Below are positions 21,001-24,000 of a stretch of 64,000 nt of DNA, in pieces. The stretch comes from Escherichia coli. GTDB lineage: Bacteria > Pseudomonadota > Gammaproteobacteria > Enterobacterales > Enterobacteriaceae. Numbering within the stretch: position 1 is the stretch's first letter; each line of letters starts with the position of its first letter. Position numbers: made by a program. Location: the NCBI RefSeq assembly GCF_041886205.1, contig NZ_CP169029.1; one strand, given 5' to 3'.

Positions 21001-24000
21001 GTACTGATATCGAAAATGAAGTTGAGCAAAATGATGACGGGACTTACTCGCAATACGGTAAGAAACGCGTCGAAGGCTATGAGATATCCGTAGCCGGGAA
21101 TATCACTCCCGCCTGGCAGGTGATTGGCGGCTATACCCAGCAAAAAGCAACCATCAAAAACGGCAAAGATGTTGCCCAGGATGGTTCCTCATCGCTGCCG
21201 TATACCCCGGAGCACGCCTTTACCTTATGGAGCCAGTATCAGGCAACCGATGATATCTCTGTTGGCGCAGGCGCACGCTATATCGGTAGTATGCATAAAG
21301 GTTCAGACGGCGCGGTGGGAACGCCAGCGTTTACCGAAGGTTACTGGGTCGCCGACGCTAAACTGGGGTATCGGGTTAATCCGCAATCTCGACTTCCAGC
21401 TAAACGTCTACAACCTGTTTGATACCGATTACGTCGCCTCAATCAACAAGAGCGGCTACCGTTATCACCCGGGCGAGCCAAGAACCTTCCTGCTCACGGC
21501 CAATATGCATTTCTGATTCAGATGTGGGGCGCAGGCCCCACTTTTTGGAGAACTTGTATGATGTACCACATTCCCGGCGTGCTATCGCCAAAGGACGTCG
21601 CCCGGTTTCGCGAACAACTGGAACAAGCCGAATGGGTGGATGGACGCGTCACCACCGGCGCACAAGGTGCGCAAGTTAAGAACAATCAACAGGTAGACAC
21701 CCGCAGCACGTTATACGCCGCCCTGCAAAATGAGGTGCTGAACGCGGTTAACCAACATGCTTTGTTCTTTGCCGCGGCCTTGCCGCGTACCCTTTCCACG
21801 CCGCTGTTTAATCGCTATCAGAACAATGAAACCTATGGTTTTCATGTGGATGGCGCAGTACGCAGCCATCCACAAAACGGCTGGATGCGCACTGACCTTT
21901 CTGCCACGCTGTTTTTAAGCGATCCACAAAGCTACGACGGCGGCGAACTGGTCGTTAATGACACCTTCGGGCAGCATCGGGTAAAACTTCCGGCAGGCGA
22001 TCTGGTGTTGTATCCCTCCAGCAGCCTGCATTGCGTGACGCCCGTAACCCGCGGCGTACGAGTGGCATCATTTATGTGGATCCAGTCGATGATCCGCGAT
22101 GATATAAAGCGCGCCATGCTGTTTGAACTGGACAACAATATTCAGTCGCTGAAAAGCCGCTACGGCGAAAGTGAAGAGATCCTGTCGCTGCTCAATCTTT
22201 ATCATAATCTGCTGCGGGAATGGTCGGAGATCTGACGCTTGAACTGCCCGAGTTCGTCCCTATATTAGCTACACTTAACTGTACAAGTATTGATATGGGG
22301 AGGACGATATGGCATCCGGTTGGGCTAACGATGACGCCGTCAACGAACAGATCAACAGTACAATTGAAGATGCGATTGCCCGCGCTCGGGGTGAAATTCC
22401 GCGTGGCGAAAGCCTGGATGAATGTGAAGAGTGCGGTGCCCCCATACCGCAAGCCCGTCGGGAAGCCATTCCTGGCGTGCGCTTATGTATTCATTGTCAG
22501 CAGGAGAAAGATTTACAAAAACCAGCTTATACAGGATATAATCGCAGAGGTTCGAAAGACAGCCAGTTACGTTAACTATAACTGGCGGGATGTATAGCGA
22601 GTATAATTTGTATTTTGCGTGACATTCCGTGCCTTTAACGCTGTTGTGACTGCCACGCTGCATAAAACAAGTCCATATGTACAGCAAATAAATGGTTTAT
22701 CAGTATGTTAGATATCAATCAATTTATTTGAACAAGGCAGTCAATTCTCTTCGATTTTATCTCTCGTAAAAAAACGTGATACTCATCACATCGACGAAAC
22801 AACGTCACTTATACAAAAATCACCTGCGAGAGATTAATTATGAAAACTATCAATACTGTTGTTGCTGCTATGGCTCTTTCAACTCTGTCATTTGGCGTGT
22901 TTGCCGCGGAACCGGTAACGGCATCCCAGGCACAGAACATGAATAAAATCGGCGTGGTTTCTGCCGATGGCGCATCCACCCTCGATGCCCTGGAAGCGAA
23001 ACTGGCTGAGAAAGCTGCGGCAGCTGGGGCGAGTGGATACAGCATCACTTCCGCCACCAACAACAATAAATTAAGCGGTACTGCGGTAATTTATAAGTAA
23101 TTCGTAGGACGGATAAGGCGTTTACGCCGCATCCGGCAACAGATGCCTGATGCGACGCTACCGCGTCTTATCAGGCCTACAAAATCCGAACCGTTGGACG
23201 GTTCAGGCGGTTACGCTACGTCCAGCACAAGTATTTCCCTGTCTGTTTGCCGACAGACGCATATGCTCTAACCCTCATTGATCCTATATTACCCTTGTTT
23301 GCCCGTCCGTTACTGGACGGGCTTTTTTTAGCTGGCTAACTGCTGACAGAAAGCCTGCAACGTCTCTTCCGACATACCAATCTGCCGCGCCGCATCACAA
23401 ATGGCCTGCCAGCTTCCCGCATCCAATGGAATCCCCTGCTCCTGCCGTTCGCGACGCGTGTTCACTTCCCACTCGCCCGGTAGCAAAATCGGCTTATCGT
23501 CATCATGCGGCGAGGCTTTCACCCACTCGGCAAAGGCTTCGGTCTGCGCGTTACAATCCGGCGCGCCGAACAGTTCCGGGTTGATGATGATAGTGGTCAT
23601 GCAGTTAAGAATGGCATCGGGACTGGTTTGTAACGTTTCCTGATGCGTCGTTTTACCGCCAGAAAGCGCCCCGCCAAGAATTTCACACATCGTTGCAAGG
23701 GCGTAGCCTTTATGTTCGGCAAAGGTCAACAGCGACCCCAACGGCGACTCCTGCATTACCGCCGGATTGGTCGTCGGCACGCCGTTAACGTCAATCAGGC
23801 AACCTGGCGGCACGGGGACGCCTTTATGCCAGGCGACGCGGGTTTTGCCAAATGCAATGGCGCTGGTGGCGTAATCAAGCAACAGCGGGAAATTATCTTT
23901 ACGAGGGAAAACCACACAGAAGGGATTGGTGCCAAAGCGGCTGTCGCGACCGTGGAACGGCGCGACCATTGGAATACCGACCACGCTAACAAAGTGGATA

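Follow-up and report, generated by a model that had tools for sequence, protein, structure and literature searches.

A one-base insertion interrupts the fiu reading frame of an Escherichia coli genome and removes the C-terminal strands of the encoded receptor

In the window that we analysed (the whole stretch of 64,000 nucleotides taken from E. coli contig NZ_CP169029.1), the gene encoding the catecholate receptor Fiu contains one extra C, and fiu, in this form, has no coding capacity for a closed barrel of 22 strands or for its C-terminal strand. The explanation that we favor, to which we give a probability of about 0.65, is that a real and recent one-base insertion (the duplication of a C, in codon 717), private to this lineage, makes fiu a pseudogene or null allele; in our best reading, the gene that is lost encodes a non-essential, redundant receptor. 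Two readings were proposed in the initial annotation of this region, namely that a mutation inactivates the gene or that the base is a sequencing error; they are still the only credible ones.

The fiu reading frame spans positions 19233..21422 of the plus strand and encodes 729 amino acids, the C-terminal end being ...KLGYRVNPQSRLPAKRLQPV* (ORF list and translation). The base-by-base alignment to the nearest complete genome, that of wlxctx60 (NZ_AP045833.1), locates the extra C at 21380/21381, where the window reads GTTAATCCGCAATC and wlxctx60 reads GTTAATCGCAATC. This agrees with the initial annotation, according to which the frame shifts after GYRVN, the ORF ends at 21422 and the conserved C-terminus is encoded in the +1 frame up to 21516. 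The shift begins after Asn716: the encoded product and the annotated Fiu of wlxctx60 (WP_000430060.1) have residues 1–716 in common, then 44 residues are lost and 13 unrelated ones are gained. Relative to its intact orthologues, whose gene is 2,283 nt long (760 codons and a stop in the reference gene), the fiu ORF is thus disrupted. The deletion of one C gives a continuous ORF, whose protein of 760 amino acids is identical to WP_000430060.1.

The second frame is open to 21516 and ends in the 44-residue native C-terminus of Fiu (ORF list). A compensating second indel in fiu is excluded, as the alignment to wlxctx60 has one gap only. The possibility that the stranded frame (ORF 21124..21516, TTG start) codes for an independent small protein was also rejected: it has no Pfam match, and upstream of the insertion it merely overlaps fiu out of frame. 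The proper annotation of the gene would be a frameshifted fiu pseudogene, not two split ORFs. The coordinates of the features are collected in Table 1.

Table 1. Features of the fiu–ybiX region, in window coordinates.
Feature	Position	Strand	Description	Basis
fiu upstream regulatory region	18969..19232	+	unchanged with respect to the wild-type relative wlxctx60	
Truncated fiu ORF	19233..21422	+	729 codons and TGA; strands β1–β20, then an aberrant tail of 13 residues	ORF list, Pfam, alignment to PDB 6BPM
N-terminal parts of the truncated fiu product			signal peptide, residues 1–33; TonB box region; Plug, residues 68–168	
CC dinucleotide with the one-base insertion	21380..21381	+	single C in all the other E. 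coli genomes examined	
13 out-of-frame codons (PQSRLPAKRLQPV) and premature TGA (21420–21422)	21381..21422	+		translation
Stranded 3′ remnant of fiu	21382..21516	+	codons 717–760 (R717 to F760) and native TGA; now in the +1 frame, untranslated	
Strands encoded by the 3′ remnant			β21, 719–726 (extended by 734–737); loop 11; β22, 743–746 and 751–759	AlphaFold model, validated against 6BPM
Terminator-like hairpin GTGGGGCGCAGGCCCCAC and T run	21524..21549	+	after the stop of fiu and before the start of ybiX; identical in wlxctx60	consensus scan
ybiX, downstream operon partner	21558..22235	+	PKHD-type 2OG-Fe(II) hydroxylase; intact	Pfam (2OG-FeII_Oxy_3 and PKHD_C)

The part of the protein that precedes the lesion is that of a normal Fiu. 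When the truncated product is compared to the PDB by phmmer, residues 34–716 align with 6BPM (E = 0, 1,536 bits) with few substitutions, at about 99% identity, and the mature chain of 6BPM begins at residue 34 of the fiu product. The signal peptide, the TonB box and the Plug domain (Pfam PF07715, E = 2e-22) are all retained. The barrel profile (TonB_dep_Rec_b-barrel, PF00593), which has 436 positions, is on the other hand matched only up to position 426 by the truncated protein, and up to its last position by the repaired one.

The structure of Fiu, a TonB-dependent transporter of 22 strands, has been modelled to residue 760 (PMC6926462). Because PMC6926462 and PMC11005823 give no usable numbering of the loops and strands of the Fiu C-terminus, we took the strand boundaries from an AlphaFold model of the repaired protein and checked them against 6BPM. 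This model (mean pLDDT 90.3, pTM 0.89) has 22 barrel strands and overlays 6BPM_A with an rmsd of 1.4 Å over 711 columns. Strand β20 covers residues 704–714 and is followed by the last two strands, whose limits are given in Table 1. The frame break falls in the short turn that joins β20 to β21 (residues 715–718), so that β21, extracellular loop 11 and β22 are missing, as the initial annotation had claimed in more general terms (loss of C-terminal barrel strands). What is left, by reference to the model of the repaired protein, is a set of 20 strands, and the truncated ORF ends in ...KRLQPV instead of a C-terminal aromatic β-signal strand.

The homologue search performed with Fiu returned 23,558 matches at E ≤ 1e-3, from which 80 diverse full-length sequences were aligned with Fiu (n = 81). 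As judged from this alignment, few parts of the family are as well conserved as the lost segment: of only 16 invariant columns, two are those of N724 and N727, and Y733, G747 and R750 are each at least 90% conserved. The alignment ends at the F760 column in 80 of the 81 sequences and the terminal residue is Phe or Tyr in 76 of them. The assembly of outer-membrane proteins starts when the β-signal of their last strand engages BamA and BamD (PMC10945584), and these observations support the earlier claim that the terminal strand and its aromatic residue are needed.

Could the product of 729 amino acids nevertheless be a stable receptor of 20 strands, either functional or neomorphic, which is assembled by means of internal β-signals? 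Motifs that resemble internal β-signals do occur in some outer membrane proteins (PMC10945584), and both the plug and the ligand-binding loops 6–9 (named in PMC11005823) are kept. However, the known TonB-dependent transporters are all closed 22-strand barrels (PMC6926462), both terminal strands are kept in all 81 of the diverse sequences, and the new tail, rich in Pro and Arg, is no amphipathic strand. We consider this hypothesis very improbable.

Regarding the distribution of the allele, fiu is present in 5,421 of the 5,426 complete E. coli genomes and its length is exactly 2,283 nt in all full-coverage rows of a sample spread down the ranking of the search of these genomes. Being near-universal and constant in length, the gene is under purifying selection, a point that speaks against the reading that we prefer. 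A 271-nt query around the site has matches in 5,419 of the 5,426 genomes, the best of which cover 270 nt with one gap; none is a 100% match. A 45-mer centred on the insertion was designed so that the 28-base megablast word seeds only if the insertion is present. It is found in none of the 5,426 genomes, and the wild-type 44-mer, used as a positive control, is found in 5,415 of them; this is also the outcome of the comparison with other E. coli fiu alleles that the initial annotation had proposed. Similarly, the exact 21-mer with the insertion is in no metagenome contig (the wild-type 20-mer, again a positive control, is in 64) and the exact product of 729 amino acids has no record in the gene and contig index. 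The insertion is private to this sequence.

This uniqueness is also what is expected from the main rival explanation, a sequencing or assembly error, in which case fiu is wild-type in the strain itself and the extra C was miscalled in the consensus. The allele is alone among 5,426 complete genomes and absent from the metagenome contigs and the protein and gene index, and the gene that is hit is undamaged in nearly all other E. coli. Among the errors of long-read assemblies, single-base indels are the most frequent type.

The quality of the surrounding sequence points the other way. Eight substitutions and the fiu insertion, which is the only indel, are all that distinguishes the window from wlxctx60 between 13545 and 64000 (50.4 kb). 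Among the seven substitutions that were classified, five are synonymous, one changes Ile to Leu in ybhP and one gives GAA where wlxctx60 has a TAA stop. To judge by the sequences, this pattern looks like real divergence that has been filtered by selection, not like a noisy assembly. One indel in 50.4 kb, compared to a near-identical genome, implies a very low local error rate. The insertion turns a single C into CC, outside any long homopolymer (the run is shorter than four), and we found no Dam (GATC) or Dcm (CCWGG) site near it, so that the usual contexts of indel errors in long reads are absent. In addition, a divergence of eight substitutions in 50 kb would, by a rough estimate, be accompanied by about one genuine indel over the same length. 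On these grounds, the lack of further indels and the benign context would favor a real mutation over an error, and we regard a miscall as a serious possibility, clearly less probable than a real insertion.

The window has several other features. Positions 1–13544 are occupied by a CP4-57-like integrative island (with genes for YfjI, a GTPase, DUF932 and DUF4942), which ends just upstream of glnP, its last ORF being the DUF4942 gene (12492..13337). The closest relative, wlxctx60, has no such island. The homology with wlxctx60 starts at 13545, 38 nt past the glnH stop of that genome; the island is therefore in the glnH–glnP spacer, where it splits the glnHPQ cluster. Four further complete genomes have the same junction from DUF4942 to glnP (about 89% identity), and positions 13399–13900 are common to many genomes, at 94%. 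The GAA codon mentioned above (Glu, position 31837) lies in ORF 30295..31980 of the plus strand, which adjoins espX2 and encodes 561 amino acids versus 514 for the ‘hypothetical protein’ WP_238092852.1 of wlxctx60; the protein has no Pfam match. ARAGORN calls a tRNA-Ser(GCT) at 25864–25948 of the minus strand, inside dinG, where the orthologous RefSeq locus annotates no tRNA, and this call is probably a false positive. Last, a lambdoid prophage remnant, now degraded, lies at about 60500 to 64000, to the right of ybhB and of a diguanylate cyclase gene; its fragments (tail fibre assembly, Lom-like, TipJ-like and tail assembly) are partial pseudogenes in the annotation of wlxctx60.

A different way to reconcile the sequence with a full-length Fiu is that programmed +1 ribosomal frameshifting, or transcriptional slippage, restores the native frame. 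Its argument is one of geometry only, the downstream frame being open to the native stop; the need for a +1 shift is also all that fiu formally shares with prfB-type programmed frameshifting. Contrary to what is seen there, a motif scan of 21341–21425 detected neither a slippery sequence nor a stimulatory element: the stretch from the insertion to the premature stop contains no prfB-type CTTTGAC, CCC_N, Shine–Dalgarno-like stimulator or −1 slippery heptamer, nor any run of six or more A or T. If the shift took place at the premature stop, 13 residues of β21 would still be replaced, the invariant N724 and N727 among them. Recoding sites are, moreover, normally conserved among orthologues, and here the in-frame sequence is that of 5,415 genomes and the sequence with the insertion that of 0 out of 5,426. 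Programmed frameshifting in either direction (+1 or −1) and slippage are rejected, given that there is neither a motif nor conservation; we see hardly any chance that full-length Fiu is made in this way.

We now return to the reading that we prefer, an inactivating insertion, and to the genes around it. The order mcbA–fiu–ybiX–ybiI is conserved, based on the annotated orthologous loci and on the domains of ybiX in the window. There is no difference from wlxctx60 between 13545 and 21380, nor is there any in ybiX. A consensus scan detects a promoter-like match at 19082–19109, upstream of fiu. The strict Fur-box consensus GATAATGATAATCATTATC, allowing three or fewer mismatches, has no match in the window; fiu and ybiX have been described as a Fur-controlled operon (bioRxiv 10.1101/2025.02.14.638246).

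The hairpin that separates the two genes is strong, with seven pairs (six of them G–C) followed by TTTTT, yet fiu and ybiX are described as one operon. Since the stop of fiu is only 94 nt further upstream than in the intact gene, and since a terminator-like hairpin already lies between the two genes, little polarity on ybiX is expected. The same spacer has been noted elsewhere: a ybiX/fiu intergenic mutation spread in mouse-gut E. coli in a published study of in-host evolution, and an IS insertion in the ybiX/fiu spacer has been linked to the cefiderocol MIC in a published report.

Loss of fiu by other lesions is known, and the allele of the window adds one more case to this type of event without being a new type of feature. 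In two complete genomes, those of strains 2017C-4173W12 and WP7-S17-ESBL-01, an IS4 in fiu removes the N-terminus; the two may result from one common insertion event. Strain H138 retains 71% of fiu. Among 37 full-length metagenomic copies of fiu, three are disrupted (L016, L046 and L051), by Y742*, Q649* and a 1-bp deletion at nucleotide 571. Y742* costs Fiu only its last 19 residues. A nonsense mutation in fiu has been reported in E. coli isolates that resist microcin E492 (PMC10926693), and a truncated CirA in ST167 (PMC12457464). The loss alleles of fiu and cirA in Enterobacterales resistant to cefiderocol or microcins have the same type of lesion as the fiu gene described here, the truncation of a receptor by a frameshift, a nonsense mutation or an IS; the exact allele of the window is absent elsewhere, that is from the 5,426 genomes and the metagenome contigs.

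These examples bring up a stronger version of the same explanation, in which the insertion is real and was also positively selected, fiu being recurrently lost from natural E. coli populations because its product is a liability, through which catecholate microcins and antibiotics of the catechol type enter. We consider it rather unlikely. The allele would then be one of many independent and individually rare fiu nulls, next to the IS4 insertions, Y742*, Q649*, the 1-bp deletion and the nonsense mutation of the isolates that resist MccE492.

Comparisons with characterized receptors are consistent with the assignment of the gene. The Fiu of E. coli K-12 (PDB 6BPM, 6BPN and 6BPO; Grinter and Lithgow 2019, PMC6926462) resembles the window product in residues 34–716, in the mcbA–fiu–ybiX–ybiI context and in the fold of the repaired model; unlike K-12 Fiu, the window product is devoid of residues 717–760 and has 13 foreign residues instead. 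PiuA and PiuD of Pseudomonas aeruginosa and Acinetobacter baumannii (PDB 5FOK, 5NEC and 5FP1) share with Fiu their clade of TonB-dependent catecholate transporters and their fold, at 30–33% identity, and as in the case of fiu, a gene encoding a 2OG/Fe(II) dioxygenase adjoins theirs (bioRxiv 10.1101/2024.10.16.618771). These are orthologues from other genera and, contrary to the fiu of the window, they are intact.

If the insertion is real, the following scenario can be proposed. Since the wild-type relative has an identical upstream region and Fur control has been described, the truncated Fiu precursor would still be made under iron limitation, from an unchanged promoter, and would be exported by means of its intact signal peptide. 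The fragment of 20 strands, which has no β-signal strand, would neither be closed nor be released by the BAM complex, and it would then be degraded in the periplasm.

Fiu takes up iron that is complexed with monomeric catecholates (PMC6926462; PMC11005823), and the strain would lose the Fiu-dependent uptake of iron from such molecules (DHBS and DHB). Because FepA and CirA, whose genes are located outside the window, overlap with Fiu in function, the cost should be small and the phenotype mild. The susceptibility to catechol mimics (cefiderocol and catecholate microcins) may drop modestly, and a large drop would be seen only if cirA were also lost. According to values relayed in a passage of PMC12480463, the MIC of cefiderocol increases about 2-fold when either cirA or fiu is knocked out and 16-fold when both are.

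If the extra C is a sequencing error, there is merely one base to correct. If it is real, the strain lacks one of three overlapping catecholate receptors, which would be relevant to the prediction of its susceptibility to cefiderocol and catecholate microcins, as the loss of fiu becomes consequential once cirA is gone; and this fiu allele would be another case of an outer-membrane receptor that is discarded in the wild.
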